64,000 nucleotides of DNA from Anaerolineae bacterium (GCA_030425205.1 JAUIAP010000016.1:55956-119955); one strand, 5' to 3'; shown: positions 4,186-54,570, counted from the first letter of the stretch. Program-made: numbers and translations. The notes: generated by a model from the sequence alone, not told the origin.

Positions 4186-4256
4186 GGAGACGTGGTGCGT
4201 GGTGCGTGGTGCGCGATGAGCACAGATCACGCATTACGCACCACGCACCACACCCT
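4186..4256. repeat. Heptad-periodic hairpin repeat, family A copy 1 (GTGGTGC units)
   Basis: cgtggtgcgtggtgcgtggtgcgcgatg (4191-4218) pairs with cacgcattacgcaccacgcaccacac (4228-4253). It is intergenic, after the PD40 gene. A GC hairpin TCCCCCTC/GAGGGGGA (4091-4118) lies just upstream. Confidence 0.85.
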
Positions 4257-4315
4257 ACAAACCACACAAATTCTCAAAGATTCACCCTTGTACACAGCGC
4301 ATCGGGGGTGCAGGT

Positions 4316-5584
4316 TTGCTAAACCGGATTGTCGCCCAACGTGATAGCCTTGCCTTCCTCATCGCCACGACATTGGCCTATGGATTGGACTATCTGTTTA
4401 ACGTCGTCAGCGGTCGCTGGCTGGGTAATGAACAGTTCGGCACGCTCGTCGCGTTGGCGGGGGTCGGACAGATTCTCGTCGTCGGCTCGCGCGTCATCCA
4501 GACTGTAACGACCCGCTACATCTCCCGTTTTCGCGCCGATACGCACGAGGAGAAGGTGCGCCCATTTATCACGGCGGCCCTGCGCGTGGGCATCTGGGGC
4601 GGGTTGGGGATCACCGTTTTATTGTGTCTGTTAGCCTTTCCATTGGCACGATTTTTGCGAATCGAGGATATGTGGGCTGTTTTTGCGCTGTTGGGCGGGG
4701 TGGGGCTGATGGTGGTTCGGCCGATTATCGGCGGAACGCTGCAAGGTCAGCAACGCTTTCTCCCGCTCGGCATCATTCAAATTATTCAGGCATCCATCCG
4801 TCTCCTAGCTGGCGCACTCTTAATTCTCGCGGGTTGGGGCGCATTTGGCGCGATGATCGCCCTGCCGATTGCCAGTCTGATTGCGCTCGTTTATGGCGCG
4901 TGGCTCCTGCGCGATCTGCTCGGCGGCACCAGCACTGTTTCCAATACCACCCCACTGCGCGAACTCGCCCACTACTCTGGCTACACGGCGGCGGGGCTGA
5001 TCGGATTCGCGCTGCTCATCAACATGGACGCCATTCTCGTCAAACGTTTCTTCGACGCGGACACGGCAGGCGTTTACGGTGCGGCCGTCACGTTGGGCAA
5101 AGTGGTGCAATTTTTTCCCGTTGCCATCATCATGGTCTTGTTTCCAAAAGCTGCCCATCGGCAGGCGACTAAACGCAACCCTGCCGCCGTTCTACCCCCT
5201 GCATTCGCCCTCATTACGGCAGTCTGTCTCGGTGTCTCGATTCTTTACTTCGCCTTTCCCGATCTACTGGTCGGCACAATCTTTGGCGACAAATTTGAGA
5301 TCAGCGGGCGGACACTTGGCACGCTTGGCCTTGCCATGTGGTTGCTTTCGCTCACAAACGTCTGGCTCAACTACTTTCTGTCGCTCAATCGCGTGCGTAT
5401 CGTCTATCTCATCTGGACGGGTGTCATCACGCAATACATCGCCTTCAACATCTGGCACGATCAGCTTTGGCATCTACCGACCGTCATGGCAATCAATGCG
5501 TTGTGGCTGACCGTTGCTGGTGCAATTCTATTTGTGCGATCAAGCAGGGAAGTCACTTCATTGCAAGAAACCCATGCACCCTAA
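4316..5584 (+). CDS. Polysaccharide/oligosaccharide flippase (Wzx/MOP superfamily)
   Basis: The 422-aa product is almost entirely TM helices. It sits in a glycan-locus context. The start is TTG, preceded by GGGGGTG. The 3' end overlaps the next gene. Confidence 0.7.
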   Translation: MLNRIVAQRDSLAFLIATTLAYGLDYLFNVVSGRWLGNEQFGTLVALAGVGQILVVGSRVIQTVTTRYISRFRADTHEEKVRPFITAALRVGIWGGLGITVLLCLLAFPLARFLRIEDMWAVFALLGGVGLMVVRPIIGGTLQGQQRFLPLGIIQIIQASIRLLAGALLILAGWGAFGAMIALPIASLIALVYGAWLLRDLLGGTSTVSNTTPLRELAHYSGYTAAGLIGFALLINMDAILVKRFFDADTAGVYGAAVTLGKVVQFFPVAIIMVLFPKAAHRQATKRNPAAVLPPAFALITAVCLGVSILYFAFPDLLVGTIFGDKFEISGRTLGTLGLAMWLLSLTNVWLNYFLSLNRVRIVYLIWTGVITQYIAFNIWHDQLWHLPTVMAINALWLTVAGAILFVRSSREVTSLQETHAP

Positions 5585-6239
5585 ATTACTCTACTTCCGC
5601 CACAAACTGTTTCGCTATCGGCAAGTTGAACAAGACATTGCCCAACGACAGACATCGCTTTTGGACATTGGTTGCGGGGATGGCGAAAATATGCTGCGCT
5701 TTCAACAGGCGTCGCTTGAAAAAGTGGGGATTGAAGTGTCGTTTAGTCGGTTACAGACTGCCCAACGGCAGGGACTGGTCGTGCAGCAAGCGAGCGGAAC
5801 GGCGTTGCCATTTGCCGATGACAGCTTCGATATGCTCTACATCGCGCATGTGTTGCACCATGTTGCTGAATTCGACACGGTGCTGCGCGAAATTGAGCGC
5901 GTGGTTGTTGAGAATGGCGTGGTCTTCGTGGTGGAAACAGTGACCGATCACCCGCTGCTGCGTCTGGCGCGTTGGTTGCATCCCGTCTGGCAAGGGGATG
6001 AGGTCGAGGCAAATTGGCGTTACAGTCAGCTTTATGAGATGCTGACCGCACATAACTTTCGCGTCGAGCGCACAGAACGCTACAATGTACTCTTCTTTCT
6101 GTGGGAGATGTTACCGCTGGCATTTTGGCCGTTTGAAATTTTCACACCGCTGTTTGTTTATCTCGACCTATTCTTCGCTCGTTTCGCTCAGCGGTATTCA
6201 GCTCACTGCTATTTTGTTTTACGACGCACAAACACATGA
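5574..6239 (+). CDS. Class I SAM-dependent methyltransferase
   Basis: Motif I is 'LLDIGCGDGENML', and 'FDMLYIAHVLHHV' is typical of Methyltransf_11. I prefer the ATG at 5574 (MHPKLLYF..) over the longest ORF start at 5514, which lies deep inside the flippase gene. The stop overlaps the next start as ATGA at 6236-6239. Confidence 0.75.
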   Translation: MHPKLLYFRHKLFRYRQVEQDIAQRQTSLLDIGCGDGENMLRFQQASLEKVGIEVSFSRLQTAQRQGLVVQQASGTALPFADDSFDMLYIAHVLHHVAEFDTVLREIERVVVENGVVFVVETVTDHPLLRLARWLHPVWQGDEVEANWRYSQLYEMLTAHNFRVERTERYNVLFFLWEMLPLAFWPFEIFTPLFVYLDLFFARFAQRYSAHCYFVLRRTNT

Positions 6240-7915: not shown

Positions 7916-7918
7916 ATA

Positions 7919-9868: not shown

Positions 9869-10002
9869 AAAAGTCACACCTTTTCACCCACCTTAAGCAA
9901 TCCTGTATACTGTAGTAGAATGTTGCTGTCTAGCACTTTGATCAGCCATAATATACGACAATGATTTAGGGTTTTTCCAGTACAAATAGAGGACATACGT
10001 GC

Positions 10003-10902: not shown

Positions 10903-10939
10903 CAGAGATTTAATCCATTCATTTCACAGGAGAGTCCGC

Positions 10940-11314: not shown

Positions 11315-12448
11315 ATGAAAATAGAAGAACTCACACTGGTTGTGGGTTCTTTTTTATCTATGAAATCAATGCTCGGCGTGCTGGCGCGTATACCAGCGTT
11401 TCAACTTTATCGTGCAACGGGGTGGCCAAAAATGATGCCACTCAACATTACGCTTTCGCCCTCACCCAAATGTAATTCACGCTGTTTGACGTGTAACATT
11501 TGGATGAAACGCGAGAATGAGCTTACGCTTGAGGAATGGGATAAGGTGTTGGCCTCGCTCGGCCCCGCACCCTATTGGTTCACGATCAGCGGCGGCGAAC
11601 CCCTGATGTACCCCAAGATCGTCGAGCTGGCGATTTTGGCCTACAAACATTGCAAGCCGGGCATTATCAACATTCCGACCAATGGCATTTTGAAGAGTGG
11701 CCCTGAACGGGTCGAGCGGATTTTGCAGGAATGTCCCGATAGTCAGTTGATTATCAATTTATCACTTGACGGTGTAGGCGAAAAGCACGACTTTATTCGC
11801 GGCGTTGCCAATAATTTTGAGAAGTTTGAGGAGCGACTTGAGCAGTACCTCGAACTCAAGAAAAAGTACAAGAATTTGGCGGTGGGCATCCATTCGGTTG
11901 TGTCAACCTTTAACGTACATGATCTGGATGAGTTGATCGACTATGCAGATCGGTCGGCGGCCGACCAGTTTATCACCGAGATCGCAGAGCCACGTGTCGA
12001 ATTGGATACGGTTGGGTTGCCGATCACGCCAGACCCCGCCGCGTATGCTGAGGCGATTGATAAGCTGATCGCCTATGTTGAAAGCAAGCAATTTAAAGGC
12101 ATCAGCAAAATTACAGAGGCGTTTCGCATCGAGTATTACAAGTTGGTCAAGCGCATTTTAGATGAGCAAGATCAGGTGATCGCCTGTTATGCTGGTTGGG
12201 CAAGTGCACAAATTTACGCCGACGGAACGGTGTGGCCGTGCTGTGTGCGGGCGGATGATTTGGGGAATTTGCGGGATCATGATTATGATTTCGGCCGAAT
12301 TTGGCATGGTGACGCAATCAAAGAGGTGCGCCGCAGTATCCGCGATAAAGAGTGCCACTGTCCGTTGGCAAATGCCTCCTATACAAACCTGCTGCACGAC
12401 GTTCCGACCATGGGGCGCATCAGTCTAAAAGTTCTCAATGTCAAGTGA
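11315..12448 (+). CDS. Radical SAM protein with C-terminal SPASM-type Cys cluster
   Basis: The CxxxCxxC motif is 'CNSRCLTCNIW', followed by 'ISGGEPLM'. C-terminal Cys-rich segments are 'CYAGW..GTVWPCCVR' and 'CHCPLANAS'. An alternative start is at 11360. Confidence 0.75.
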   Translation: MKIEELTLVVGSFLSMKSMLGVLARIPAFQLYRATGWPKMMPLNITLSPSPKCNSRCLTCNIWMKRENELTLEEWDKVLASLGPAPYWFTISGGEPLMYPKIVELAILAYKHCKPGIINIPTNGILKSGPERVERILQECPDSQLIINLSLDGVGEKHDFIRGVANNFEKFEERLEQYLELKKKYKNLAVGIHSVVSTFNVHDLDELIDYADRSAADQFITEIAEPRVELDTVGLPITPDPAAYAEAIDKLIAYVESKQFKGISKITEAFRIEYYKLVKRILDEQDQVIACYAGWASAQIYADGTVWPCCVRADDLGNLRDHDYDFGRIWHGDAIKEVRRSIRDKECHCPLANASYTNLLHDVPTMGRISLKVLNVK

Positions 12449-12938: not shown

Positions 12939-12940
12939 TA

Positions 12941-14647: not shown

Positions 14648-14649
14648 GC

Positions 14650-16946: not shown

Positions 16947-16971
16947 GACGGTATGGAGCAGTAACAAGATC

Positions 16972-24243: not shown

Positions 24244-24244
24244 T

Positions 24245-24303
24245 ATTGCGTGTTGCGTATTGCGTATTGACCGCTGGATACGCACCACGCAATACGCAAT
24301 ACG
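24245..24303. repeat. Heptad-periodic hairpin (TATTGCG/GTGTTGC units) between convergent genes; probable bidirectional terminator
   Basis: attgcgtgttgcgtattgcgtat ... tacgcaccacgcaatacgcaatacg lies between the PurA-like stop (24243) and the recJ stop (24342). Confidence 0.7.
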
Positions 24304-26057: not shown

Positions 26058-26123
26058 AGAACAGGGATTCTAACACATTCGTGGCGTGTATTGGATTAGC
26101 AAAATCATGGGGCGTTCTATCTA

Positions 26124-26240
26124 GTGTCACGAAGTTTTCGCAATAATGCAAAACGTGGTGCGTGGTACGTGGTGCGTATTCAGTTCACGCACCACGCACC
26201 ACGCACCACGCATAAGGGTAGCGAAAACCTAAAGACACAT
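26124..26240. repeat. Heptad-periodic hairpin repeat, family A copy 2 (long palindromic element)
   Basis: The core is cgtggtgcgtggtacgtggtgcgt (26154-26177) paired with acgcaccacgcaccacgcaccacg (26187-26210). The outer arms GTGTCACGAAGTTTTCGC ... GCGAAAACCTAAAGACAC are also complementary. It lies in the divergent region between recJ and the nitroreductase gene. Confidence 0.85.
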
Positions 26241-26314
26241 TCAAGTTCTCAAAATCTCGCAAGAATAACCTGAAACTGTTACAAATCTTGCACGAATTAC
26301 GTAGATTCCAGCAC

Positions 26315-38404: not shown

Positions 38405-41400
38405 TTACGGCGATTCGACGATCACAATTTCGGAAGCAGATCGGCCGAAAACCTCTGGCGAATACATCTCTTCTGCCTTTGCTGGGGGAACAACAAACAC
38501 ACCCGGCGTTGTCGCACGTGCCACAAATTCATATTCATGGACACCCGCGTAGAGCAGCGTCGTAAACGCTTCGGCGCGTTCGTCGCGCAGGTTGACGTGG
38601 TCATACCAACGCCACCACCACCAGTAGTTTGGTTCATCCTCATCGTTGGGTGCGTCTGGGACAGCGACCGTATTTGCCAACCCCTCGTTGATGATTTCCA
38701 AGCCAGCGGGGAGTGGCGAAACCAGTGCCACGTGCGTGCGGCGGCTGTCTGCCACCATCGTCAGCTTGACGCGCACTTTCGCGCCAGCCTTGATGTGCCA
38801 GTTACCATCTTCATCTTGCGTCACGTCGGCTGGGTCATCGACCGCCTCATATTCGCGCAGCACGATGAAGCCACGATCGAGCGGATCGAGTGCCAAATCA
38901 CTCGGCGCATAGCGTAAGCCCAAGCGATAGTACAGTCGTCCGGCACCCTCTTTGCTGATGATGACGTTTTGTGCATCGGCCGAATCAGCGAGGAAGGTCA
39001 ACGGCACATCCGTCGCGTGGCGGTCTGTCGTGCGACCTTCGTAGACGTGTTCGGCCGCATACGTCTCACCTAGCCATACTCGCGCCACAAAATCGGGGGT
39101 CTGTGCCTCAAACGTCTCGAAGTAGCGATCCATCGCCAGCAGAATAAAGACGTTTTCCTGCGTGTTGTGCCAGCGTCCGCGCGTTTTGTCGGCGAGCAAG
39201 CCGTTGACCACCTTCACGATTAGGTCGCTATCGGGGTCGTTGGCGATCAGCGCATCGAGGATCACGCCATCGGTACGGCGATTGCTGTGCATGATGACAT
39301 AGGCATCATCGCTGTATTCGGTCGTGAAGGTGGCTGCATTGGCCGTTTCGACGGCACGGTTCTCGAAGTAGCGGCTGATTTCGGCCGATTCCGTTCCCTC
39401 ACTGCCAATCACCTGCCAAACCCATGCCAACGCCTCTGGGGCCAGCCCATCTGCACCGTTACGGTTGTAAAGTGCAAGTGCTTCGTCGCGGTCATTGTCG
39501 CCGCTCAAATCACGTACATACAGCGCATAGGCGCGAATCGTGTTCTTAATGTCTTCACTGTACCAGCTTGGGAAGTGGCTATCGACGTTCTCCAAATAGT
39601 TGAGCGCACGACTGAGCATATCGGCCGGCACGTCGTAGCCGTTCATCTGGGCGCGCACAAGTGCGTGGGTGACGTGTGCCGTCAGGAACGGATAGGAGGT
39701 GCGATTGCTCGACCACCAGCGGAAACCGCCGTCACTCGTTTGCAGTCGCGCAATCCCTTCGATGTCAGCCCGTACTTGCGCTTCGATCTCTGCTTGTTCG
39801 GGCATCCCGTCCGCATCAAACGCGCTCAACACGTCTTGCAACGCGGCGATGGCGAGAATGCGCGAGCCACGTGCTTCGCTGCTCTCATAGGGATAATCGA
39901 CCAAGTAGAGAACGGCATCGGTCAACGCTTGCAGCGCGGTCGACGAGGTGTCAATTTCTAAGCCGCCAAACTGTGTATACACGCCCTCTGGCACGGCAAC
40001 CGTTTGGGCAATTGCGCCCTCATCGATCACGCCATAGGTGGCGAACGCTTCCGTCGTTGCGGGCGTGTAGACGGGCAAATCGATATTGGCTGCATCCGCA
40101 TAGTCGCCAGAAACGGCGGCAAATTGGAAGCGGGCCAAGCCCGGCTGGTCGGTGGTCGTTGGGAAGCGCACCTCGATGCGGTCATTGGCGGGAACGGTGA
40201 CACGTTGGCCGTTGCCTTCTGTCAGCGCAACGTTTGTTGCCGTGACGACGACATCGACGACCATATCTTCGTCAGTCTGGTTTTGCAGAACGACGGGCAG
40301 TTCAAAGCTATCCCCAAAGTTGAGGAAGCGCGGTGCAGATGGGCGCACCATCAGCGGTAGACGGGCCGTGAGATTGCTTTCGGCCGATCCAAACAGCTTC
40401 TCGCCGCTGACAGCAACCGCCATAATCCGATAGCGTGTCAAGTTGTCAGGCAACGTCACCTCAACGCTGGCGTTGCCGTTGCCATCGGTCGTGACCGTCG
40501 GCGCAAACAACGCGAGGGCATCAAAGTTAGTGCGAACCTGAATCGGGTCTTGATTATTACCGCTTGTGGCCTCATCGGCGGCCACTTGAGTTGCCATTGG
40601 CGCAGGTGCACTGTTCAAATTAGCACCATCATCAGCACTATCAAACGCCATAGACTCTTCCATCACCTCCCCTTCAGTGGCCCCACCAACCGCACTGCGA
40701 GCAACATCTTGGACGGCGTTCCCCGCCAATTGGGTCGGGTCGACCAAGACGAGTTGGGCGCGGCTGTGCGACCCTTGCAGGTAGGTGTAGCGATTTTGAT
40801 AGATGGCGTTGAGTGGATTGACGAGCTGATAGTTTGTCAATGCCAGCACCGCTTCATCGACAACGACAAGCGCGATTTCTGAGTTGGTGACAGGATTGCC
40901 ATTGGCATCGGTCACGGTCAAATCAATCGTGGTGCTGCCGCCGGGTTCAAGCCCTGTCTCTTGCGGCTTGAGTTCGATGTCGAGCTCACGGCTGCGCGTC
41001 GAGATGGGCAGTTCGATGCTGCCGACCGCATAGGCGGGGCGAGCTGGTGCGTCGGGCAAGGGTGTGCCGTCGTCCAGCGTGCGCGGCTGTGCGCCCACAA
41101 GATCGATCTGCACGTTGATATTGGGCAAATACACCTCTTCGATAGGGATTTCGATGATGGTCGTGTCTCCTTCCATCGTGAAGCGTTCGGTTGAAACGAT
41201 GCCCTGTCGCGTCAGCGTGAGCAGCCCTTCCGCGTTTGGAATCGGTGACTGCACCAAAATTTCAGCGACATCGCCGGGTGCAAATGTCTCTTGGCTAGGA
41301 ATCAACGTGACTTGTTCTTGTTCGACGTTGCGATTCGGCCGATTGTCGCCACCACTGACCCAGCGTGTAATTTCGCTTTCATTACCACGCCCTTGCGCGT

Positions 41401-44400
41401 CGGTGATGGTCGCCGTGATGCGATATTGTCCGCCTTCTTCCGTCGTGAAGGTGCAGATGACCGCTTCAGCACCAGAGGTCACGTTGCAAGTTTGCACGTC
41501 GGCCTCTGTCTGTTGCCAGCGTCCACTGCTAAACGTCCATTCGAGCCGTGCCGCTTGCAGCGTAATCGGCGTGTTTGCAACGGCATTGCCGTCGATGTCT
41601 GTGACAATCGCCTCAATGTCGAGCGGTGTGCCTTGGCGGACAAAGTAGCGGTCGCTGCGTAAGCCCACATAAAGATCGGCGGGATGGACGAGCAGACTGG
41701 TGCTTGCACCCCAGCCTTGTCGGTTTACATCGATCACTTCGGCCGATGCTTCTACGCTATATGGTCGATTGGCTTCAAATTCGTCAAAGTCGATTCGCAA
41801 ATAGTGGTCGCCACTCGCGTCGGTGCGTCCTTCAAAGCTCTCATAGCTGCTCTCATTGCCTTCATAGTAGAAAGAATCATCATACCAGCCCCACCATGGC
41901 GTCCATTTGCCGAAGCTGAAATCGCTCCAGTTGGGTGGTGAGTAGGTGGTTGGATTGCTGTAGACGTTCCAGTAGACTTCGGCGTTGGGCAGTGCGCCGC
42001 CCGCGAAGTATTCGGCCGTAACACCCACAACCGCATGACCACCAATAAAGTGTGGCGATGGGGTCTCATTGCGTGCCGTTACCTCAAACTCTGGACGACG
42101 GAACTCTTGGATTTGGAATTGATGATAGTAGCTGCCATTTGGCATCCGAAATTCGATGTTGGCATAGCCGAGATTGACATCTTCGGGCAGATCAATGGTT
42201 AAATCGAAGCCGCCGAGAGTGGATAGTTCAACTGAACCAGTCGATAACTCATTCCCTTGTGACCCACGCACAGTATAGTTGATCGTCTGTGCGTCATCCC
42301 ACAGCGCAATGTCACCCAATGCGCCCGGTTCAACTCTGCGAACAAACCCCTTAACGCTCATTGTCTCGCCGGGACGATACATGGCGCGGTCATCAAAGAT
42401 GACCCAGCGCACCTCGCCGACATTGCGTTCGTTGTACCATTCCCCATACCCATATTCATTGGCAGGTAGCAGGGCGATGTCGTCGCCACTTTGAACGGTC
42501 AGATAGTTCACGCCGTCGGGGAAGTCAGAGATGCGAATTGTGCCATCGGCCGATGTTGTCGCCGATTGACCCTGAAACTGTACGGTCGCATCCGCTATCG
42601 ATGCGCCATCGCTCAACTGATTCGCCCAAACGATCATCTCCCCATTGCCCAATAGTGCATCCACGCCGATGTCCGTCACTTGCACCCAATGGGTGACAAC
42701 CGGGCGATAGCGATTGGTAAAGCGATCGATCAATCCTTCCGTTGGGGTAACGCGGATGATCGCGTGTCCATGCTCGCCATTGAGGGCTGCGCTCAGGTCG
42801 ATTGGTGTGACGGTTAGTTTGTCGTCTTCGCCGTCAACGCTGACGGTTTCATCAAAGACAAGTTCACCGGGTGGCGAGGGTGGATTATCGCGGTATGCAT
42901 TTTGCTGATACCTTAAGAACGCTTCCCAATCAGCGAGCGAAACCTTGTAAACCTGCACGTCAATATTTGGCACATTGATCGAATAGACGCTAATGGCTGG
43001 ATTGGGAGCGGCGGGATCGAGCGTGACAAGCGGCTTGTTCGCGCCGAAAAGGGTGGGTTCGGCCGAATCAATATCCTGCTCAAACTCATAATCGGCGCCC
43101 ATCGTCTGCCCAAAAATGTCCTGAATTTCGCCACTGAGACGAACCGTATAGGTTGAACGAGGCTGCCATGCGCCGCGAATGCTCATATAGTTGCCATAAA
43201 CACCGACAATTGCGTTCGGGATTTCTGGCTCAATCGTCACCCAATTGATGTCAAACAGTTGTGGATCGAGTGGGTTGGTAAATTCGATGCTGACTTCGCC
43301 ATAGGGGGGGCAGTTCCCGCCGTAGCCACAGCGTGTCTCGCGGACGGCCAGTGGTGGATAGGTTTGGGTTGAATAGGAAAATGTCTGGTCGCTTGTGCGT
43401 GCGCCTTCCAACGATGGCACGTTGGGGCCGATCTGGATGCTAATTGAAGTATCTGGTTGGAAGGGGTCAACGGCGCGGAATGCCACCCAACGATTATCGG
43501 GATGATTTTCTGCCAGTCCGTTGATGCGCTCATCGGCCGAAATTTCTTCCGCTGTTGCCAAGCGCAGCGCAACCTCGTTGCCACCTGCCGTCACCGTCGT
43601 CACGTCCAAAATAGCGGCCGGGTCAACGCGCTGGTCAAAGCCTGCAAAGAAGATCGGTTCCAGCGGTTGCGAACCGTCTTGTGGATAAAATGTTTGGATT
43701 TGTGGGGTCGGCGTGCGGAAAGAGAATGAAACCGTCTCTTGCAATGTCCCACCCGTTTCAGAGGTTGTTCCCGCAGGAATCTCGATTGTCACTTCGGTGG
43801 ACATCGGCAGGCGGTCGATTTGATCGGAAGCAAACTCGAAGCGTGCCGTCTGGGTTCCTAACCAAATCCACTCACCGGGCAGGTTGGGGGTCATGACCAT
43901 CGGCACATCCATTGCGGCAAGCTGATCTTGCGTCGCAATTGGCACCATCGGCTGATTAAATGTGACGGCAATAAACGGCGCAATCGTCACATCTCCCTCT
44001 GGAGCAAAACGAATCACTTCGAGATCACCGTCATTGTTGACCACTTCAACGGGTGGCGGCGCGAGTTCACCGGGGGCAGGGAACTGCTCATTGATCGTCT
44101 CACCCGTCAGTGGGGGTGGAATCAGCTGGGTTGGCAAATTAAGCTCAACTTGATCACTCGCCTCGCGCTGCAATTGGGGTAGGCGGGCGAGGATTTGGGC
44201 GATCACTTCAGATGGCAGACCTTCCCCTTGCACGACCTGATTTAGGATTGGCGCACTGTCCGCTTCGGGATTTCCCGCGCTCAGGCGCATACCAAAACGC
44301 GGCTGATTGCCTAGCTCGGCCGCCGCAAATGGATCGACCTGTAAAATCATGCCACTCTCTCCTGTTTGACTGGTTGTGTTGCCGCCATCTGGAACAGGCG

Positions 44401-44509
44401 TCGTTACGCCGTCAGGGGTCGGCGTGGGATCATCAGGCTGCTGGTCGCGGCAGTTGACAAGCGCGAACGTTAACAGCAAGAACAAGGTAATCAATAGGTT
44501 TCTTCTCAT
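38405..44509 (-). CDS. Bacterial alpha-2-macroglobulin family lipoprotein, thioester motif absent
   Basis: The start at 44509 is preceded by GGAGACGAA. The lipobox is 'LLLTFALVNC'. The product is about 2030 aa with repeated Ig-like (MG) segments. The TED-like region 'LYLVDYPYESSEARGSRILA' stands where thioester A2Ms have YPYGC(L/x)EQ. Confidence 0.8.
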   Translation of the reverse strand: MRRNLLITLFLLLTFALVNCRDQQPDDPTPTPDGVTTPVPDGGNTTSQTGESGMILQVDPFAAAELGNQPRFGMRLSAGNPEADSAPILNQVVQGEGLPSEVIAQILARLPQLQREASDQVELNLPTQLIPPPLTGETINEQFPAPGELAPPPVEVVNNDGDLEVIRFAPEGDVTIAPFIAVTFNQPMVPIATQDQLAAMDVPMVMTPNLPGEWIWLGTQTARFEFASDQIDRLPMSTEVTIEIPAGTTSETGGTLQETVSFSFRTPTPQIQTFYPQDGSQPLEPIFFAGFDQRVDPAAILDVTTVTAGGNEVALRLATAEEISADERINGLAENHPDNRWVAFRAVDPFQPDTSISIQIGPNVPSLEGARTSDQTFSYSTQTYPPLAVRETRCGYGGNCPPYGEVSIEFTNPLDPQLFDINWVTIEPEIPNAIVGVYGNYMSIRGAWQPRSTYTVRLSGEIQDIFGQTMGADYEFEQDIDSAEPTLFGANKPLVTLDPAAPNPAISVYSINVPNIDVQVYKVSLADWEAFLRYQQNAYRDNPPSPPGELVFDETVSVDGEDDKLTVTPIDLSAALNGEHGHAIIRVTPTEGLIDRFTNRYRPVVTHWVQVTDIGVDALLGNGEMIVWANQLSDGASIADATVQFQGQSATTSADGTIRISDFPDGVNYLTVQSGDDIALLPANEYGYGEWYNERNVGEVRWVIFDDRAMYRPGETMSVKGFVRRVEPGALGDIALWDDAQTINYTVRGSQGNELSTGSVELSTLGGFDLTIDLPEDVNLGYANIEFRMPNGSYYHQFQIQEFRRPEFEVTARNETPSPHFIGGHAVVGVTAEYFAGGALPNAEVYWNVYSNPTTYSPPNWSDFSFGKWTPWWGWYDDSFYYEGNESSYESFEGRTDASGDHYLRIDFDEFEANRPYSVEASAEVIDVNRQGWGASTSLLVHPADLYVGLRSDRYFVRQGTPLDIEAIVTDIDGNAVANTPITLQAARLEWTFSSGRWQQTEADVQTCNVTSGAEAVICTFTTEEGGQYRITATITDAQGRGNESEITRWVSGGDNRPNRNVEQEQVTLIPSQETFAPGDVAEILVQSPIPNAEGLLTLTRQGIVSTERFTMEGDTTIIEIPIEEVYLPNINVQIDLVGAQPRTLDDGTPLPDAPARPAYAVGSIELPISTRSRELDIELKPQETGLEPGGSTTIDLTVTDANGNPVTNSEIALVVVDEAVLALTNYQLVNPLNAIYQNRYTYLQGSHSRAQLVLVDPTQLAGNAVQDVARSAVGGATEGEVMEESMAFDSADDGANLNSAPAPMATQVAADEATSGNNQDPIQVRTNFDALALFAPTVTTDGNGNASVEVTLPDNLTRYRIMAVAVSGEKLFGSAESNLTARLPLMVRPSAPRFLNFGDSFELPVVLQNQTDEDMVVDVVVTATNVALTEGNGQRVTVPANDRIEVRFPTTTDQPGLARFQFAAVSGDYADAANIDLPVYTPATTEAFATYGVIDEGAIAQTVAVPEGVYTQFGGLEIDTSSTALQALTDAVLYLVDYPYESSEARGSRILAIAALQDVLSAFDADGMPEQAEIEAQVRADIEGIARLQTSDGGFRWWSSNRTSYPFLTAHVTHALVRAQMNGYDVPADMLSRALNYLENVDSHFPSWYSEDIKNTIRAYALYVRDLSGDNDRDEALALYNRNGADGLAPEALAWVWQVIGSEGTESAEISRYFENRAVETANAATFTTEYSDDAYVIMHSNRRTDGVILDALIANDPDSDLIVKVVNGLLADKTRGRWHNTQENVFILLAMDRYFETFEAQTPDFVARVWLGETYAAEHVYEGRTTDRHATDVPLTFLADSADAQNVIISKEGAGRLYYRLGLRYAPSDLALDPLDRGFIVLREYEAVDDPADVTQDEDGNWHIKAGAKVRVKLTMVADSRRTHVALVSPLPAGLEIINEGLANTVAVPDAPNDEDEPNYWWWWRWYDHVNLRDERAEAFTTLLYAGVHEYEFVARATTPGVFVVPPAKAEEMYSPEVFGRSASEIVIVESP

Positions 44510-44888
44510 TTCGTCTCCGTTAGTATGAATGGACATTCGTCCACTCAACATTTGATAATTATACAGGCGCGACGATCAAAATAAGACCGCCGCGCCACCC
44601 TGAAGGGTCTGGCTTTAGATATAACGGAGGCGGCGTGCGATTTGTTCCACAATTGATGGGATTGGTTTTGGCGCGTTTGGCATCATGCGGTGCAGTCGAC
44701 CTGTGTCTTACCCATTTGCCCTTGATCTGTGGATAAGGTGTGGATTTTTTGTGAGTAAGCTGTTGAAGGCGACTCATAATTCATTAAGGTTTTACTTTGG
44801 TGCGTGTGGTGCAAACAAAATGGGCGCGTCTCCGTTGCGGAAACGCGCCCATTCGTCATTTAATCATGCCCCAACTCAGGACGTTCGA

Positions 44889-47800
44889 TTATTCTGGCAA
44901 TAGTCCAATCCAATAGTCGTTGCCACCCCAATAGTAGCTGCCCGACCAGTAGTAGCTGCCGTTCCAGTAGTAGCTGGCCAAGTCAAAGAGGCTGTTACCC
45001 GCCCAGTAGTAACTGCCACCCCAATAGTAGGTGCCACTCCAATAGTACGTCCCGCTCCAGTAGTAACTGCCTGACCAGTAGTAGGTTCCGCTCCAGTAGT
45101 AGGTTCCAGCCCAATAGTAGGTTCCGTTCCAGAGATAGCCGTCAGAATCGGCCGATAATGCACTCTCCGCCGTCACATGCACGATGGGTTCAATTCCGGC
45201 ATCTAGCACAACATTTGTACAGCGATACTGATTGCCTTCCTGATGTTTGGCAACGACCCACCTGTGATTGCGATAGGTTTGACGCGATACTGTCTGACCG
45301 GGATGAATCGTCGCTTTTAATTGCGGACTGCCACTATAGCTGAGCCAGAACAAATACATCGTTTCGTTGCTTGAATTCTCCACCGTCAGCGTTGTGGAAT
45401 TGAGACCGTCTAACGACGAGCGAATGTCGCTCAACTCTTCACAGCGGGGATCACGCCCATGGACACGATAGCCGCCTGCATCCTCGTCGTAGTAGGCAGG
45501 TCCCACATAACGACCACCAGCGTGCATGTTTTGCGAAACATTGCCGCTATAGCTTCCATAAATCGCATCATACGGCTTCAAACGCCCTGCACCTTGCTGG
45601 AAGATGCTAAACGTCGTCTGTTGACCCGAAGAGTCACGCACGAGCGGTTGTGCCGATGCTTGCAGGCGGAACTTCACCTGATCAGGCGTCAACTCTGGAT
45701 TTTCTTGCAACATGAGGGCGACCACGCCAGATGTAACGGCGGTGGCGGCCGATGTGCCAGACCCTAAATAGTAGCCGCTATTCGTTTTCCGCACGCGTCG
45801 GTTGTTGGCATAACGACTGTTTGATTGCTGTGGTTGGGCGATGTGTGCGCCGGGTGCAACGATGTCGGGTTTAACAAAACCCATCTCGGTTGGTCCGGCC
45901 GCGCTAAATGGCGGAATATAGTCATCACTCGCATAGCCCGGCGTATACGCATCGGTGTAGGCACCGACCGTCACGACCATTGGGTCGTTGCCCGGTGTCG
46001 TGATCGAACCCGCGTATGGGCCCGTGTTGCCCGCCGCAACAATCACGACAACACCAGCATCCCACAGCAGTTCAACCGCCGTGTTAATTGGATTCTCCCA
46101 ATACGGCCCCGTCACAGGCCCCATCAGTGACAAGTTGACGACGCGGATATTCAACGCTTCATGGTGATCGTAGATGACCTCAAGACCACGTAGTACGTCT
46201 GCGTAGGTCGATTTTCCATCAGGGTCTAGCACGCGGATATCGTAGATGTTTGCGTCTGGTGCAACGCTGACAAAACGTCCTCTATGCCTATCGTTGCCGG
46301 CAATGATGCTGGCCATAAATGAGCCATGTCCATTTTCGTCGATGTCGGTATCGGGTAGTGCATTGTAGCGCATCACTACATTATTTTTTAGAACGGCTGG
46401 ATTGATTCCCGTATCCACAACGGCAACGCCAATGCCTGCACCACTAAGGCCTGCCTGATGGAGAGCGGGAATGCCGATTTCATCTAAATAGTCAGTTGGA
46501 GAGACCTCGGACGCTGTCGTCTTTTGTGTTTCATAAGGGGCAAGATAGCTGCCGGAGATGACTTCACGACGACCGTTGGGGATTTGCCACGCGACAGAGA
46601 GATGGTCGGCTCCCGTATGTTCTTTTTGAATCGCCTCAATATAGTAACGTTGCCCAGCTTCGAGATAAATTTTGCGCGACTTCTGTGATGCAAGCCAATT
46701 CCATTCGTGATAGTAGGTCCACTCGGTCACTGAGGCGATTTGTTGCGCTTCGTCGGGTCGCTCTGTTGCGCTGAGATAGAGGCGTGCATAGTTGTTGCCA
46801 GCCAACCAGAAGGTATATTCGCCCGTCACGGGTGGGTATAGATAGCCGCGTACGCGAGTCCCATAATGATCATCCATGTTGACGGGGGTTTCAAATTCGT
46901 TGATGTGACTCGTTCCCGTTGGATTGTTTGGATAGTTAGGATGGTTTAGTAGTGCGTTCAGGCTATCGCCGTTGACGTTGAGCCAGTATTCGCGCAGGAT
47001 TGTCCCACGACTATCATCAGGGCGAGAGCGGAAGAGAACTTCGTCTTGAATCGGCCGTTTTGAGAAGTTCGCGCTTTGATATGAGACGACGAGTCTATCG
47101 ACATAGCCATAGCCACCAAAATACTCGACTGTAATTGGATGATACCCTTGCTTGAGGAAGATGGTGCCGCTGCGTTCGCGTAGACCATGCAGGCCGTCAT
47201 TATCGACGACGAGTTGCCCATTGATGTGTACTTGGCTGCCGCCATTTGATTCGCTATAAAATGTGTAGGTTTCATCACGGTCAATGTAAATAAAACCGGT
47301 GTAACGGAAACCAAAGTAATCAATGCGTCCACGCACAGATAGATCGATGTTGTCGACCGTACCATGAAATGTCGGTACTAGATTTTCAAAATTAGGCAAA
47401 CGCGACCACCAGCCTTGATAGTACTGATAGAAAAGACCGTTGTCGCTGCCGCGCGCTGTGCCACCGTTCTGCTGGTTGAGCGTAATGTTGTCGAGATAGA
47501 AGGTCGGTTGGGGAGATTCGGTCAAACTTTGCCAAATGATGCCGTGAATGGGTGTATCGGCCGAAATAATCTCATCAAGCGCAATTTCATACTGCATCCA
47601 CGCGCCCTTTTCGGCCGTGACGGTCGTCTGCGACTTGCCCCAGTCGATTCCATCGGCCGTCACTAGCTGCAACCAGAGCGTTTGCCCGCCGGATTCGCCA
47701 CCATGCAACCAAAAACTCAGCGTGTCAACTTCATCGACCGTGAATGGCTTGTTCGTTTTGAGATAGAACGCCGAATGTGCCGCATCAAGTGAGACGGCAA

Positions 47801-48413: not shown

Positions 48414-48525
48414 CTATCACTCCTACGCTCTGATAGCGCATGAAATCTGTTCTGTTGTTTGGGGTGTAATTTGAAGCGTTCACACCACCGATTACTGTAA
48501 CGAATGCTAGTGTAGTACTCTGATC

Positions 48526-49194
48526 TTACAAGGTGACTTGCAAACTGTAGAGATGTGCCTGTTTGTGTTTGCCAATTCTATGCACAAGCGCAAGTTTATG
48601 CAGGCAGTACATCATCTGCTGGGCGCGGCGGCGTGGGATGTTGGCATGATCGGCGAGATCAGCGGTCGTGAAGGGGGTTGGGAGCGTTTTTGGGAGGAGC
48701 AAGAGGAGATCGGCCGAATTCTCAATGCGCACCCAATCTTTAACTTTTAAGAGGCGACGCGCCGTGATCATCCAGCCGCGTCGCCGTCCATATTTGCGCT
48801 TGGGGTCATATTCGCGCTCAATTTCATCTTGCACTAGGAGCAGTTCGATCGAAAGATTGGGGTCATCGAGCGACGTGGGCAGCGCGACCAGTTGTTCAAA
48901 AATATCGTGCAGCGTGCCACGTTTGGGGGATTTGCGCCGCTTGCCCTGTTTGATGATCCAACGTTCGGCCGAAATTGGATAGACAATCGTGACGGCATGG
49001 GTGGGGAGAAAGTGGGAGAGTTTGGCCCTTAATCGGCCGAAGCTGCCTGTTTGAACTTCGATCAAGCGTTCCCCACGCACAATGTCAATCACAAACCGAT
49101 CGATTGGCACCTCAAACTGATCGCCGGGCTGCGCCAGCCACGACTTTACCTGTGCATGTAATTCCCGTTCGTTCAATGTGCCAATGTCGGACAT
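48526..49194 (-). CDS. Hypothetical protein, PD-(D/E)xK nuclease-like N-terminus with C-terminal wHTH-like region
   Basis: 'ERELHAQVKSWL..GDQFEVPIDRFVIDIVRGERLIEVQTGSF' has a D...E-x-Q pattern of the restriction-endonuclease fold. The C-terminus 'FTTADLADHANIPRRRAQQMMYCLHKLALVHRIGK' resembles an HTH. The assignment rests on motifs only. Confidence 0.45.
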   Translation of the reverse strand: MSDIGTLNERELHAQVKSWLAQPGDQFEVPIDRFVIDIVRGERLIEVQTGSFGRLRAKLSHFLPTHAVTIVYPISAERWIIKQGKRRKSPKRGTLHDIFEQLVALPTSLDDPNLSIELLLVQDEIEREYDPKRKYGRRRGWMITARRLLKVKDWVRIENSADLLLLLPKTLPTPFTTADLADHANIPRRRAQQMMYCLHKLALVHRIGKHKQAHLYSLQVTL

Positions 49195-49202
49195 GCCCTA
49201 AG

Positions 49203-50521
49203 GATCGCGAATTAAATAACTGTCGTAAATGATAGTTGCGGCATGGCACGATAATTCCACTTGGGCAGATAGGCATCAAAAATAATCGGCATCGTTTCCC
49301 TGAATGTGTCTGAAACCTTGCGACCAGTCTGGTAGAGTTTGTCGAAAACGGCGACAGAGACAGAAAGCCCAGTAGCCGTTTTGGTGCGTGCAATCAGGTC
49401 ACGAACGATGGCAACAGATTTGAAGACAACTCCTTGACAGGCAAGGGTGACATGGGGGAATAAGCGATGCTCAATCGGATTGTATTTGGAACAGTAAGGC
49501 GGATAATGGGCAATACGAATCTCGATGCCGATGTCATTGACCAATTTCTGTAATTCTTCCTTGAAAATATAATAGTGTGAACTGTTGCTGCCGCCACCAT
49601 CGCAAAGCAGCAGAATAGAGGTTGCATTGGGATAGTGATGTTGACCCGCACTCATCCACCAGTGCCGAATACTATCGCAGGCAAATTGACTGGTATCTTT
49701 ACTGGTTCCGATATGGATATACCCGTGATTGAGGGCTAAATCATAGAGCGCATGAGGAATCACAATGCCATCTGCGCTACTGGTAAAATCATGGTCATTG
49801 GTCTGGATAACCTGTTGGGTATACAGGCGACCGTCACGGTAAAAATTGCCCAGATACTCCTTCTTTTTCGTGTCCATACTCACGACAGGGTTGCCACTTT
49901 CCATGTACACTTTGCGTAGTTGTTCAATGTTCTTGAACTGTTCATCCCGATTAGCCACCTGACCCATTGTCACACTCTTCTGTGCTTTACGACGCCGAAA
50001 ACGATGTTGATTCAGTAACTTTTTGACCGTTGTCACACTCGTTTTTAATTGGTGTTCTTCCAGCATCATCTCGCTGATCTCTCTTGGTTTTAGATGTGTC
50101 CAGCGTATTCCCTCATCCATCGGGTCTCCCGCCGTATACGTCTCAATCACCTTAAGAAATGCTGCATTCAACCGTTCTTTTTTTGTCAAATGGTTTGCGC
50201 CCACCCCCTGGTCGGCGAATTCGTCCTGCTGGGATTTCATTCTTATTGCTCGCCAATTCAGCTTGCCCTCGTTGAATGGTTCTCGCTGAGCAACCCAACA
50301 CACTTTCCATATACAACTGTCCGCCATACCCCACCTTTTTGGCTTCTAGTGCTGCATAATGCCGCTTATCTCGCTCCGAGAGCGTTTCAAAAAACTTGCG
50401 CATTTGTTGTTCTATTTCTACGTCGTATTTTTTCATTTTTAGCTCCATTCTGTCAAAATATGATTGTAGTCCTTTCTCTTTCCCTTTGGCTACAATTACG
50501 ACATCTATTTAATTCGCGATC
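49203..50521 (-). mobile_element. ISAzo13-family insertion sequence (1319 bp) with 16-bp perfect terminal inverted repeats and a 5-bp target duplication
   Basis: The IRs are GATCGCGAATTAAATA (49203-49218) and TATTTAATTCGCGATC (50506-50521). Direct repeats CTAAG flank them at 49198-49202 and 50522-50526. The element contains ISAzo13-type transposase coding sequence. It has no TCGGCCGA copies. Confidence 0.85.
49212..50448 (-). pseudogene. ISAzo13-family DDE transposase split into two frames at an A7 run
   Basis: The N-terminal ORF (50448-50152) reads 'LSERDKRHYAALEAKKVGYGG..PAGRIRRPGGGRKPFDKK'. The C-terminal ORF (50327-49212) reads 'KKERLNAAFLKVIETYTAGDPMDEGIRWT..MDTKKKEYLGNF..LLLCDGGGSNSS..YCSKYNPIEHRLF'. 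The frames join at GACAAAAAAAGAA (T-run 50178-50184 on the plus strand). Removing one A restores a single ORF. Confidence 0.8.
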
Positions 50522-50640
50522 CTAAGTGTAACGAAAATAAGCGGCGTGCATGACCCAGACAGCACAAACTTACGCGAAATATTGATGGAGATGGTATGAT
50601 CAACTCTCTAAGAACTGTTACGCGATACACGAGGAAAAAG

Positions 50641-52641: not shown

Positions 52642-52675
52642 CGTGGGGTGTGGCGTTCTTTTAGAAAAGGGGTTG

Positions 52676-52785
52676 GTGTCTTTAGATTTTCGCCACTAAG
52701 GTGCGTGGTGCGTGTCCAGAATACGTACCACGCACCACGCACCACGAATGATAATGTGGCTAAAACTTCATTGATACGAACAAAA
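52676..52785. repeat. Heptad-periodic hairpin repeat, family A copy 3
   Basis: The core is ggtgcgtggtgcgtg (52700-52714) paired with cgtaccacgcaccacgcaccacg (52724-52746). The outer arm GTGTCTTTAGATTTTCGCCACTAAGG is related to copies 2 and 4. It lies between convergent genes. Confidence 0.85.
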
Positions 52786-52794
52786 AACGAATTA

Positions 52795-54336
52795 TCAATA
52801 CGTCGGCAACCCAAGATCAACCATCTCTTGCCCTGCCAAAAACGCCTTTAACGCCGCCTTTGTCGCATCCCGATCGTCCCAATCATATTCTGTTGTGCCA
52901 AAACACATCGACTGTTCATGCCCTTTGCCACAGACGAGGACGAGGTCGTGTGCGCCCGCGCAGGTGAGCGCGTGATAGATGGCGCGACCGCGATCAGGGA
53001 TGCGCCAAAATGTCACCCCTTCTTTGCCGCCGTGTTTGCGACACCCTTCGGCCATCATCCCAAGAATATCATCCAGTGGCTCTTGTCGCGGGTCTTCGGC
53101 AGTAAGCACCGTCAGGTTGGCGTGCTGTTCAGAGATTTCGGCCATCATACGCCGCTTTTCGACATCGCGCCGACCTGCACTACCAAACACGGTGATAATT
53201 TTGCCAGTCGTCATACTGCGGGCTGCTTCGATGGCGCGTTTGAGCGCGTTCGGCGTGTGGGCAAAATCAACGATGACGGGGAACGGCTGCCCCATCACGA
53301 TCCGTTCCATGCGACCACTAATCAGCGTCACATTTTCGATCCCGCGTTTGATATGTTTATTTTCGATTTCGAGTGAGTGGGCAGCGGCGGCGGCGGCGAG
53401 CATGTTGTAGATGTTAAATCGGCCGACCAGCGGGGTTGCAATTTCGATGCCGAGCGGTTCTATGTTGAAGGTGGTTTTTTCGGCCGAAAAGCGCACCCCA
53501 TTTGCCCATATATCCCAGCGGTTGTCCATCCCATAGCTAATTTGCAGCGGCTTCTCAAATTGAGAGAGATATTCGGCCGAAACATCGTCCCCATTGATCA
53601 CGGTCGCCCGTTCCGCCAGTTCAAACAACCGCCCCTTTGCGTGTAGATAGTTCTCCCATGAGCCATGATAATCTAAATGCTCGTGGGTGACATTTGTCAT
53701 CACGGCGACATCGTAAAATGCAGTGTCGGCGCGATACTCCGCCAAGCCATAGCTGGTCGATTCCAGAACACAGTGTGTACAGCCATCATCGACCATTTTG
53801 CGCAGGAAAGCCTGCGTCTCAGGCGCTTGCGGCGTGCTGACGTGTAGCCCTGTCGGCTCCTCTCGATTGCCGATCACCGCCTTGATGGTGCTGATCATGC
53901 CCGTTTTGTGTCCAGCCGCGATCAGAATTTCATAGACAAGATTGGTCACCGACGTTTTGCCATCTGTCCCCGTTACACCCACAACGGTCAAATGTTGGCC
54001 GGGAAAATCGTGCCATGCGGCCGCCAGCCATGTCTCGACCATTGCCGTATCTGGCACAGTCCAGACACGGGCATGGTTCTCTGGAACGCCCGCCTGCCCC
54101 GCCTGCGCGATGACCAACGCCGCACCTTTTTCCAATGCCTGCAAGACAAAGGGGTGTCCGTTGCTGTAGGGGCGCACGCGCGCAATGAAGCAGTCGCCCA
54201 CTTCAACAAGCCGACTGTCTTCAACGATGCGATTGAATGTAATGGGGGAACCCGTGTGCGGGGGTGGCAGCACATAGTCGTGCTGAACTGCAAAGGCGTG
54301 CCATGTTGCGAGAAGATCGGTGATCGTTTTGCTCAT
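52795..54336 (-). CDS. murE: UDP-N-acetylmuramoyl-L-alanyl-D-glutamate ligase adding the third residue (MurE)
   Basis: 'VVGVTGTDGKTSVTNL', 'VLESTSYGL' and 'LTAEDPRQE' are present. The Mur ligase three-domain pattern is seen at about 510 aa. Confidence 0.9.
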   Translation of the reverse strand: MSKTITDLLATWHAFAVQHDYVLPPPHTGSPITFNRIVEDSRLVEVGDCFIARVRPYSNGHPFVLQALEKGAALVIAQAGQAGVPENHARVWTVPDTAMVETWLAAAWHDFPGQHLTVVGVTGTDGKTSVTNLVYEILIAAGHKTGMISTIKAVIGNREEPTGLHVSTPQAPETQAFLRKMVDDGCTHCVLESTSYGLAEYRADTAFYDVAVMTNVTHEHLDYHGSWENYLHAKGRLFELAERATVINGDDVSAEYLSQFEKPLQISYGMDNRWDIWANGVRFSAEKTTFNIEPLGIEIATPLVGRFNIYNMLAAAAAAHSLEIENKHIKRGIENVTLISGRMERIVMGQPFPVIVDFAHTPNALKRAIEAARSMTTGKIITVFGSAGRRDVEKRRMMAEISEQHANLTVLTAEDPRQEPLDDILGMMAEGCRKHGGKEGVTFWRIPDRGRAIYHALTCAGAHDLVLVCGKGHEQSMCFGTTEYDWDDRDATKAALKAFLAGQEMVDLGLPTY

Positions 54337-54465
54337 GCCGCAATGATACTACAATGGATTTAGGAAATAAATAACGGGCGAAACGGTTGGCGCAAGTTGC
54401 AAGTGGCAAGGTAGGATGAGTCTCATACTTGCAACTTCTTACCCACGCAATGGATATTCGTTCAT

Positions 54466-54570
54466 GTCACGTAGTTTTCGCCACTTGATAAGTCGTGGTG
54501 CGTGGTGCGTACTCTGGACACGCACTACGCACCACGTACCACTCACCTAAGTGGCGCAAACCTAAAGACC
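54466..54570. repeat. Heptad-periodic hairpin repeat, family A copy 4
   Basis: The core is cgtggtgcgtggtgcgt (54494-54510) paired with acgcactacgcaccacgtaccac (54520-54542). The outer arms TGTCACGTAGTTTTCGCCACTTGATAAG / CCTAAGTGGCGCAAACCTAAAGAC are complementary. The left flank matches copy 2 (TGTCACG-AGTTTTCGC). Confidence 0.85.

Follow-up and report, generated by a model that had tools for sequence, protein, structure and literature searches.

Intergenic hairpins with arms of tandem CGTGGTG heptamers in an Anaerolineae genome and in other bacterial phyla

A 64,000-nucleotide (nt) stretch of DNA from an Anaerolineae bacterium (GCA_030425205.1, JAUIAP010000016.1:55956-119955), termed here the window, with positions counted from its first letter, carries five copies of a hairpin element whose arms are tandem heptamers. 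The core architecture read at the five sites is 5'-(CGTGGTG)2-4 / loop of ~8-23 nt / (CACCACG)2-4-3', and all five copies are intergenic. Hairpins with the same arms are found at 100 or more loci in public genomes. The CGTGGTG hairpins are a new addition to the known class of bacterial heptamer repeats, and are distinguished by their obligate hairpin form, their presence in many phyla and their nesting in lineage-specific palindromes. They are interpreted here, with a probability of about one half, as near-neutral dispersed palindromes similar to repetitive extragenic palindromic (REP) sequences or MITEs (miniature inverted-repeat transposable elements), which would be copied as units by an enzyme acting in trans and resized by slippage. 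Of the source genome, the analysis covered the 64 kb of the window.

An earlier note on this DNA had described five heptad hairpins; direct reading, Tandem Repeats Finder (TRF), folding and a sequence profile all place them where that note did. The copies are as follows.

Copy 1, 4186-4256: simple core hairpin; 5' arm (CGTGGTG)x3.3 at 4191-4213, 3' arm at 4228-4251; flank motif TTCTCAAAG at 4271-4279, outer arms absent; fold -28.1 kcal/mol, z = -5.8; profile match E = 3.5e-12
Copy 2, 24244-24303: diverged core with CGTATTG/CGTGTTG units and one CACCACG unit; arms 24244-24269 and 24278-24303; neither outer arms nor flank motif; fold z = -5.0; nhmmer profile match E = 1.3e-5
Copy 3, 26125-26254, + strand: composite; outer arms 26125-26141 and 26221-26237; heptad arms 26154-26177 and 26186-26212 with the loop CGTATTCAGTTCACG between them; flank TTCTCAAAA at 26246-26254; profile E = 9e-46
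Copy 4, 52659-52774, - strand: composite in reverse orientation; outer arms 52677-52696 and 52756-52774; heptad arms 52700-52714 and 52723-52746; flank motif TTTTCTAAAA (- strand) at 52659-52668; profile E = 8e-38
Copy 5, 54465-54588, + strand: composite; outer arms 54465-54484 and 54551-54569; heptad arms 54494-54510 and 54519-54547; flank TTCTTAAAA at 54580-54588; profile E = 1e-41

TRF gives period 7 for all ten arms, with 2.1-4.1 copies of the unit in each. The stems are ~15-30 bp and are built of heptads, with extra outer stems in copies 3-5. Common to copies 3, 4 (inverted) and 5 are the outer arms TGTCACGAAGTTTTCGCCAC ... GTGGCGAAAACCTAAAGACA, the loop CGTAYTCWGNNCACG and a TTCTCAAAA-like flank. 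These parts had been ascribed to copies 2-4; copy 1 has only the flank motif and copy 2 has none of them. Copies 3-5 are only 67%-75% identical over their full length and are thus not recent. The presence of common sequence outside of the heptads shows that whole units were copied, not assembled in place. The ~20-bp inverted outer arms of copies 3-5, together with a length of ~98-130 bp and the lack of coding sequence, correspond to terminal inverted repeats of the MITE type; copies 1 and 2 are without them. A third, outermost palindromic tier at copies 3-5 was seen by eye, but folding did not recover it and it was dropped.

A chance origin of the heptad hairpins is excluded. The 14-mer GTGGTGCGTGGTGC (two or fewer mismatches) has 17 matches in the window where 0.85 would be expected, with a maximum of 3 in 100 shuffled sequences, and 15 of the 17 fall inside the five elements. 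Single-strand folding of the five regions gives -21 to -40.5 kcal/mol (z = -5.0 to -8.7); no shuffle out of 200 equals them. A profile made from copies 3-5 matches the five elements and no other place in the window, with E-values of 1e-5 to 1e-46. In public genomes, a pattern with 26 specified bases yields at least 100 matches in 596 Gb, where we estimate that far fewer than one would be expected. The idea that these are unrelated chance hairpins, or ordinary terminators that look alike, is left with nothing in its favor beyond the intergenic position, and has next to no probability.

The CGTGGTG unit and its complement are free of stop codons in every frame; stop-free open reading frames (ORFs) therefore cross the hairpins on both strands as an expected artefact. 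One of these, ORF 4104-4322 (72 aa), crosses copy 1 and had rightly been called spurious. In practice, the stop-free arms produce spurious ORFs in genomes of Chloroflexota, Gemmatimonadota and the Planctomycetota-Verrucomicrobiota-Chlamydiota group, and in the same genomes the long perfect stems likely break assemblies and confuse terminator and small RNA predictors.

Distribution and shared parts of the element

The existence of further copies outside of the window had been set beforehand as a test, and such copies are abundant. One genome per GTDB species was scanned with the pattern GGTGCGTGGTRCG, a gap of 4-34 nt, and CGYACCACGCACC. This yielded at least 100 loci; copy number and taxonomic range are both minimum estimates, and taxa were taken from record titles. 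Among the matches listed are ~45 from Chloroflexota (Ardenticatenaceae, Caldilineaceae, Anaerolineales, Thermoflexales and 'Ca. Trichofilum'), 20 from Gemmatimonadota, 9 from Verrucomicrobiota together with 12 from two metagenome-assembled genomes (MAGs) labelled 'uncultured Klebsiella', 4 from Planctomycetota, 3 from Patescibacteria, and one or a few each from Acidobacteriota, Acidimicrobiia, Thermaceae and others. The listed matches also show many loci in single genomes: 12 in HK-STAS-CHLO-38, 6 in Caldilineaceae OZ243888 and 7 in one mislabelled MAG. A few matches, in Streptomyces, Oerskovia and Spirosoma, look like ordinary G+C-rich palindromes rather than heptad arrays.

It should be noted that the two 'uncultured Klebsiella sp.' MAGs, CAZOCL01 (loci L012, L018, L041, L049, L056, L078, L079) and CAZCBE01 (L025, L027, L054, L059, L095), have 65% G+C and a Limisphaerales subtype of the element, and that E. 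coli genomes are without copies. The Klebsiella label looks wrong, and these MAGs probably belong to Verrucomicrobiota.

Scans of IMG/VR viral contigs, INPHARED phages and 5,426 E. coli genomes gave no copy of the core hairpin. The PLSDB plasmids contain only two arrays, both unpaired (CACCACG)5-6. These are on large linear actinobacterial plasmids, Rhodococcus opacus pR1CP1 (L110:1489-1530) and a plasmid of Streptomyces sp. NBC_01450 (L111:1490-1533); neither has an inverted partner nearby or an annotated feature at the site. A literature search for the literal arm sequences returned no paper in the library that was searched.

Across phyla only the heptad arms are in common, and loops and flanks differ by lineage. 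The Caldilineaceae loop TGTACCGGTACA makes the element a perfect palindrome without a loop. Gemmatimonadota loops are of the GGGA...CCC type. In the Verrucomicrobiota-type MAGs the loop has a near-constant length of 26-28 nt (whole match 56-60 nt) and is G+C-rich and strongly diverged in sequence. That the core would be shared across many phyla, with outer arms private to the source lineage, was not foreseen by the earlier note. The outer-arm sequence of the window is present only at copies 3-5 and is absent from 109 fetched loci. In Joint Genome Institute (JGI) metagenomes, the outer-arm pattern gave no match and a loop-specific pattern gave one match, which is without outer arms; the composite form thus appears private to the source lineage. 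The TTCTCAAAA sequence is likewise not a general flank or target motif, as there is no enrichment beside hairpins of other genomes (one match, at the background rate). A likeness of the right arm CTAAAGACCC to Caldilineaceae copy L011 is missing in the other copies of that genome and was taken as chance.

A second composite form is found in Ardenticatenaceae HK-STAS-CHLO-38. Seven cores in this genome (L003:1990-2150, L009:4064-4224, L030, L035, L039, L089 and L099) each form the center of a different, MITE-like element of ~130 bp with ~27-bp terminal inverted repeats (GGCTCTTTGGGAATTCAGGGGGTTGAC). These repeats begin with GGCTCTTT and may resemble ISL3-family ends. L003 and L009 have 8-bp direct repeats at the element ends (AGTCTTTT and AGTTTTTT); the flanks of the two are alike, and they may not be independent insertions. 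Together with the composites of the window, these elements show that the core has repeatedly been the center of larger lineage-specific palindromes that are copied as wholes.

Placement and turnover of copies

In the fetched loci, where gene contexts come from crude longest-ORF calling, most copies are intergenic; 27 were called 'inside ORF', mostly at ORF edges. Neighboring genes are co-directional at 40 copies, convergent at 13 and divergent at 12 (n = 65), a mix close to random intergenic placement. Within co-directional gaps, the hairpins are nearer to the upstream gene, with a median of 20 nt from its stop codon vs. 66.5 nt to the next start (28 vs. 11 cases, p = 0.009), and several hairpins fill the entire gap between convergent stops. 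The position after stop codons fits purifying selection against promoter insertions and a non-specific, orientation-independent role of the stem equally.

Copies differ between relatives, as the earlier note had suggested they might. L108, whose MurE is 86% identical to that of the window, keeps the glgC-murE gene order; copy 5 is absent from the spacer and copy 4 is absent downstream of murE. About 67 kb of sequence from relatives, fetched by protein and therefore unbiased for the element, contains no copies, vs. five in the 64-kb window. In two relatives with 92%-94% identical RecJ, recJ lies beside ftsZ in a different neighborhood, and homology upstream of recJ stops ~65 nt before copy 3. 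As the recJ gene order differs in both close relatives, the comparison with empty sites at this locus gave no insertion boundaries.

In three pairs of Gemmatimonadales MAGs, an orthologous intergenic site has retained a hairpin, with flanks 82%-94% identical (L016:4990-5048 and L040:4706-4764; L006:5131-5186 and L093:7755-7809; L022:2882-2929 and L043:3575-3628). All three pairs show uncompensated point changes and none shows a compensatory substitution; two of the three have indels, of 8 and 15 nt, i.e. about one and two units. Arms in the fetched loci have 2-7 units, with a mode of 3, and both arms are equal in 43 of 103 hairpins. Units vary most often by G-to-A changes at positions 4 and 7. 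A TAGTG variant, found in ~15 of 122 outer units (~12%), fits an ordinary G-to-A change at position 4 of the unit.

These data bear on the possibility that the element is a functional RNA hairpin, i.e. a stem in 3' UTRs or spacers between cistrons that would be a terminator independent of a U-tract, a block to 3'-exonucleases by which the upstream mRNA is stabilised, or an RNase III site, and would act in either direction of transcription. Whichever strand is transcribed, the RNA stem is very stable (-35 to -78 kcal/mol), the copies lie close to stop codons and in some cases fill convergent gaps, some are kept at the orthologous Gemmatimonadales sites, and REP elements, which are comparably placed, have been credited with such roles (PMC3733652). 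Yet 12 of the 65 classified copies are between divergent genes, as is copy 3 of the window. A run of four or more T residues within 35 nt is found on the sense side in 6 of 40 cases and on the antisense side in 11 of 40. With so few T-runs on the sense side, the hairpins are not canonical intrinsic terminators, and the earlier statement that they are not simply terminators is borne out by this and by the copies in divergent gaps. Folding is better for the sense RNA in 15 cases and for the antisense RNA in 17, with 70 vs. 88 G-U pairs (Wilcoxon p = 0.33); mismatches are thus not skewed to G-U in the sense transcript. As the two strands fold equally and orthologs lack compensatory changes, we see nothing to indicate selection on RNA structure in any one transcript. 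Furthermore, close relatives manage without copies 4 and 5, and a structural role leaves the same heptamer across phyla unexplained. A functional RNA hairpin is therefore considered possible but rather unlikely.

The preferred interpretation, a REP/MITE-like dispersed palindrome, would proceed as follows. The core, which is palindromic and reads alike on both strands, could extrude as a hairpin of 20-30 bp in single-stranded DNA or in a transcript from either strand. A putative enzyme supplied in trans would paste whole units, including lineage-specific loops and outer arms, into new intergenic sites. Copies would survive mainly where they are least harmful, typically a few to ~20 nt past a stop codon. 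Arm length would then drift in 7-nt steps by replication slippage, and point mutations would accumulate uncompensated. Should the stable stem alter transcript ends or mRNA stability, this would be incidental. The data show that the copies are one family, dispersed in many copies, restricted to intergenic DNA, present or absent between relatives and variable in length by heptad steps, and that neither RNA strand bears a signature; copying to new sites, the enzyme for it and the near-neutrality of the copies are inferred.

The heptad register and known repeat systems

Tandem-array hairpins in the fetched loci are almost entirely of period 7 (n = 125); periods 8 and 9 have 5 and 3, respectively, and periods 4-6, 10 and 11 have none. 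This is also seen when CGTGGTG is left out. In 865 kb, there are 132 period-7 arrays of other sequences vs. 16, 17 and 4 at periods 8, 9 and 10, and 6 in shuffled sequence; they are ~8-fold commoner than those of periods 8-10, and half are paired as hairpins. These include 35 hairpins made from ~25 other heptamers in several phyla, compared with 4, 1 and 0 hairpins at periods 8, 9 and 10. Among the heptamers are GGAGATT, CAGTAAT, GCGTGAT, GGTCCTT, GGCGAAT, GAGTCAA, GGAATTT and CAGTAGT, and examples of the hairpins are at L005:6557-6614, L035:1673-1744, L013:3202-3268, L046:2553-2661 and L096:1662-1744. The closest NCBI relative of the window, L102, has another heptamer of this class: at ~12150-12190, two GGCTAGT units face two ACTAGCC units upstream of a nitrite/sulfite reductase gene.

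The CGTGGTG arrays are essentially always paired in the fetched loci; 33 arrays were scored as unpaired, and these are mostly hairpin halves whose partner arm is below threshold. Polarity is uniform. In ~870 kb of fetched loci there are 83 hairpins with the G-rich arm first and none with the arms swapped, most of them picked by the search pattern, and ~10 further copies that were not so selected are also G-arm-first. A palindrome keeps its arrangement on inversion, and uniform polarity is thus predicted by common descent; it would equally follow from a directional mechanism of synthesis. A general G-rich-arm-first rule over all heptamers was not adopted, as the trend is weak (26 vs. 7) and the families are not independent.

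An alternative that addresses the register directly is a process that works in place in 7-nt steps: an enzyme or repair pathway common in these phyla would add or duplicate heptamers at DNA ends, nicks or hairpins, and joining of two extended 3' ends or snap-back synthesis would then give a G-arm-first palindrome. The CGTGGTG hairpins would in that case be the most frequent product of the process rather than mobile elements. The excess of period-7 arrays, the 35 hairpins of other heptamers, the uniform polarity and the recurrence of CGTGGTG in many phyla with unrelated loops and flanks are in accordance with this, as is the excess of heptamers published for Xanthomonas, Nostoc, Geobacter and Beggiatoaceae. 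On the other hand, copies 3-5 of the window, the Caldilineaceae copies and those of HK-STAS-CHLO-38 share loops and outer sequence, i.e. complete units were copied; uniform polarity is as well explained by common descent, and the G-rich-first trend is weak. No candidate enzyme was found here, and we know of none. Assembly in place is thus unlikely. In its widest form the proposal is that the heptad arms, beyond being carried along by a mobile element, are the footprint of a cross-phylum process in which an enzyme extends DNA 3' ends or hairpins in 7-nt steps, and palindromes arise by joining or snap-back. This is quite unlikely; if true, it would explain the dominance of period 7, the common architecture of unrelated heptamers and the recurrence of CGTGGTG across phyla.

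Heptad operators are known for the omega repressor, a ribbon-helix-helix protein. The element could similarly be a double-stranded array of iterons for a protein that reads 7 bp, serving nucleoid organisation or regulation. The layout of 3-4 direct heptads, a spacer and 3-4 inverted heptads would suit such a protein, as would the conservation of the heptamer across phyla, and heptamer repeats in Nostoc are reported to have regulatory effects (bioRxiv 10.1101/2022.06.06.494920). Several observations argue against it: unrelated heptamers with the same architecture occur within one genome; there is no preferred position relative to promoters, most copies being past stop codons; unit number is variable and unequal between arms; and the units decay by ordinary transitions with no position strongly protected. 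This explanation appears very unlikely.

To our knowledge, neither a mechanism nor a function has been established for the heptamer repeats of bacteria, i.e. the short tandemly repeated repetitive (STRR) sequences and those of Xanthomonas, Geobacter, Beggiatoaceae and Nostoc. In Xanthomonas, GGGAATC heptamers are intergenic and occur at hundreds of sites per genome, with 70-75 convergent array pairs per genome that could fold into stem-loops or cruciforms; related strains have the same type of site but vary in the number of units, and an excess of heptameric repeats was noted in both Xanthomonas and Nostoc (Rehm et al. 2015, PMC4692102). The CGTGGTG family has the features of this Xanthomonas-type/STRR class, namely period 7, multiple copies, intergenic location and inverted pairs. 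It differs in that GGGAATC is another heptamer, forms G-quadruplexes and is reported as genus-restricted (PMC4692102); many of the Xanthomonas arrays are single and no outer palindromic arms are described, whereas CGTGGTG arrays are essentially always paired.

TAACTGA repeats are present in Beggiatoaceae, Cyanobacteria and Bacteroidetes with no evident mechanism of transfer (MacGregor 2015, PMC4679880). The cyanobacterial STRR/TAACTGA repeats resemble the CGTGGTG family in period, intergenic location and the occurrence of one heptamer across distant phyla. However, TAACTGA sets are almost all direct (169 direct vs. one indirect in the BOGUAY genome) and lie just upstream of start codons (PMC4679880); the CGTGGTG family is palindromic and mostly follows stop codons. 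Geobacter metallireducens has 4-5 tandem heptanucleotides at 16-49 sites per genome, and in supplementary figures some of the multicopy sites, heptanucleotide class-3 sites among them, are shown looping between the two strands (PMC2700814). The Geobacter units are different (GGACCGG, MTYCTGA), some sites are intragenic, and they were suggested to bind regulators or to be RNA elements (PMC2700814). The heptad register had been called atypical of REP sequences, bacterial interspersed mosaic elements (BIMEs) and MITEs. This is upheld, but inverted tandem heptamers as such were already described in Xanthomonas and Geobacter (PMC4692102, PMC2700814).

Like REP, BIME and REPIN sequences, the heptad hairpins are short extragenic palindromes found in all gene orientations, often after stop codons, and polymorphic (PMC3733652, PMC3116915). 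REP stems are 5-13 bp with an unpaired GTAG or CGTC tag (PMC3733652); the heptad hairpins have longer stems, and the tag is absent at the window copies. Bacterial MITEs (Correia, ERIC and Nezha types) are similar to copies 3-5 in being small and non-coding, with inverted outer arms, and in being polymorphic between relatives; unlike MITEs, copies 1 and 2 and most copies elsewhere are without outer arms, and no matching parent insertion sequence (IS) was found in the window. Intrinsic terminators share with the element a G+C-rich hairpin shortly past a stop codon. They differ from it in the T-run, which it does not have, and the element is also found in divergent gaps, has far longer stems and is repeated verbatim across a genome.

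A number of observations weigh against the REP/MITE-like interpretation. Clustering of 189 ORFs neighboring the copies shows no recurrent gene family. The earlier note had proposed a search for a RAYT (REP-associated tyrosine transposase)/IS200-like or other mobilising gene, and no RAYT gene was detected in a Pfam scan of 25 of the ~40 main window ORFs or beside the copies. Target-site duplications are not visible at the ends of copies 3-5. REP and MITE families are lineage-specific, whereas the CGTGGTG heptamer is identical in many phyla with unrelated loops and flanks. The search pattern fixes 13 nt of each arm in 100 loci, and arm conservation is thus in part an ascertainment effect. In Verrucomicrobiota-type copies the arms, at three or more units, are near-perfect despite the diverged loops, which indicates that the arms are constrained or homogenised. 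A plain mobile-element model also leaves unexplained the other heptamers that share the hairpin architecture, almost only at period 7. The interpretation accounts neither for the heptad register nor for the identity of the unit across phyla, and for this reason the three alternatives (RNA hairpin, assembly in place and iteron array) are kept beside it.

The family may be of help with the general problem of heptamer repeats: it is essentially always palindromic, has one invariant unit across phyla and coexists with hairpins of many other heptamers. Many of the phyla that carry it are known from uncultured lineages alone.

Surrounding genes and other observations

The source of the window is a member of the Chloroflexota, class Anaerolineae, near Ardenticatenaceae/Promineifilaceae. 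Its RecJ is 94% identical to a JGI metagenome protein, 92% to that of MAG GCA_964389925 ('uncultured Ardenticatenaceae') and 70% to a 'Candidatus Promineifilaceae' protein.

The genes that flank the window copies are ordinary housekeeping genes, and ORF and Pfam calls agree with the gene contexts given in the earlier note, including the divergent setting of copy 3:

Copy 1: between co-directional genes, 115 nt past the stop of a DUF11 gene and 60 nt ahead of a polysaccharide-synthesis gene
Copy 2: between convergent purA and recJ; its first base directly follows the purA stop codon (24241-24243), and 38 nt separate its end from the recJ stop
Copy 3: between divergent recJ and nitroreductase genes
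Copy 4: between murE and a DUF255/thioredoxin gene that converges with it
Copy 5: between glgC and murE (both - strand), 25 nt past the glgC stop and 130 nt ahead of the murE start

Both recJ and murE are bracketed by two copies of the element, and the murE pair is inverted. Such bracketing may mark breakpoints of rearrangement, but for five copies two adjacent pairs are only weakly unexpected (p ~0.07, our own estimate).

The sole mobile-element gene in the window is an ISAzo13-family DDE transposase (PF07592, E = 1e-104; ORF 49212-50327, - strand). It lies in an IS at 49198-50526 (1,329 bp) with 34-bp inverted ends (88% complementary). This IS was considered as a parent of the composite hairpin and rejected, as its ends are unlike the outer arms. 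The adjacent ORF 48526-49194 has no Pfam match.

A search of the whole window with Rfam 15 at the gathering score finds only a tRNA-Met, and the hairpins are unmatched; relaxed thresholds give only generic miRNA-hairpin matches far under threshold.

Directly upstream of the recJ start, a sequence of 21 nt (ATGTGTTAGAATCCCTGTTCT, recJ strand) is conserved in three genomes (window 26060-26080, L102:9980-10000 and L103:1314-1334), while beyond it the sequences differ. This probably represents the recJ 5' leader or its ribosome-binding region.

The window also has two ORFs of 2,048 aa each, 38405-44551 and 57834-63980. They are unrelated (BLASTP E = 0.57); one is a bacterial alpha-2-macroglobulin and the other a subtilase-domain protein. 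A tandem repeat of 18/36/54 nt at 44910-45133 is a coding repeat within a 1,174-aa PA14/subtilase protein.

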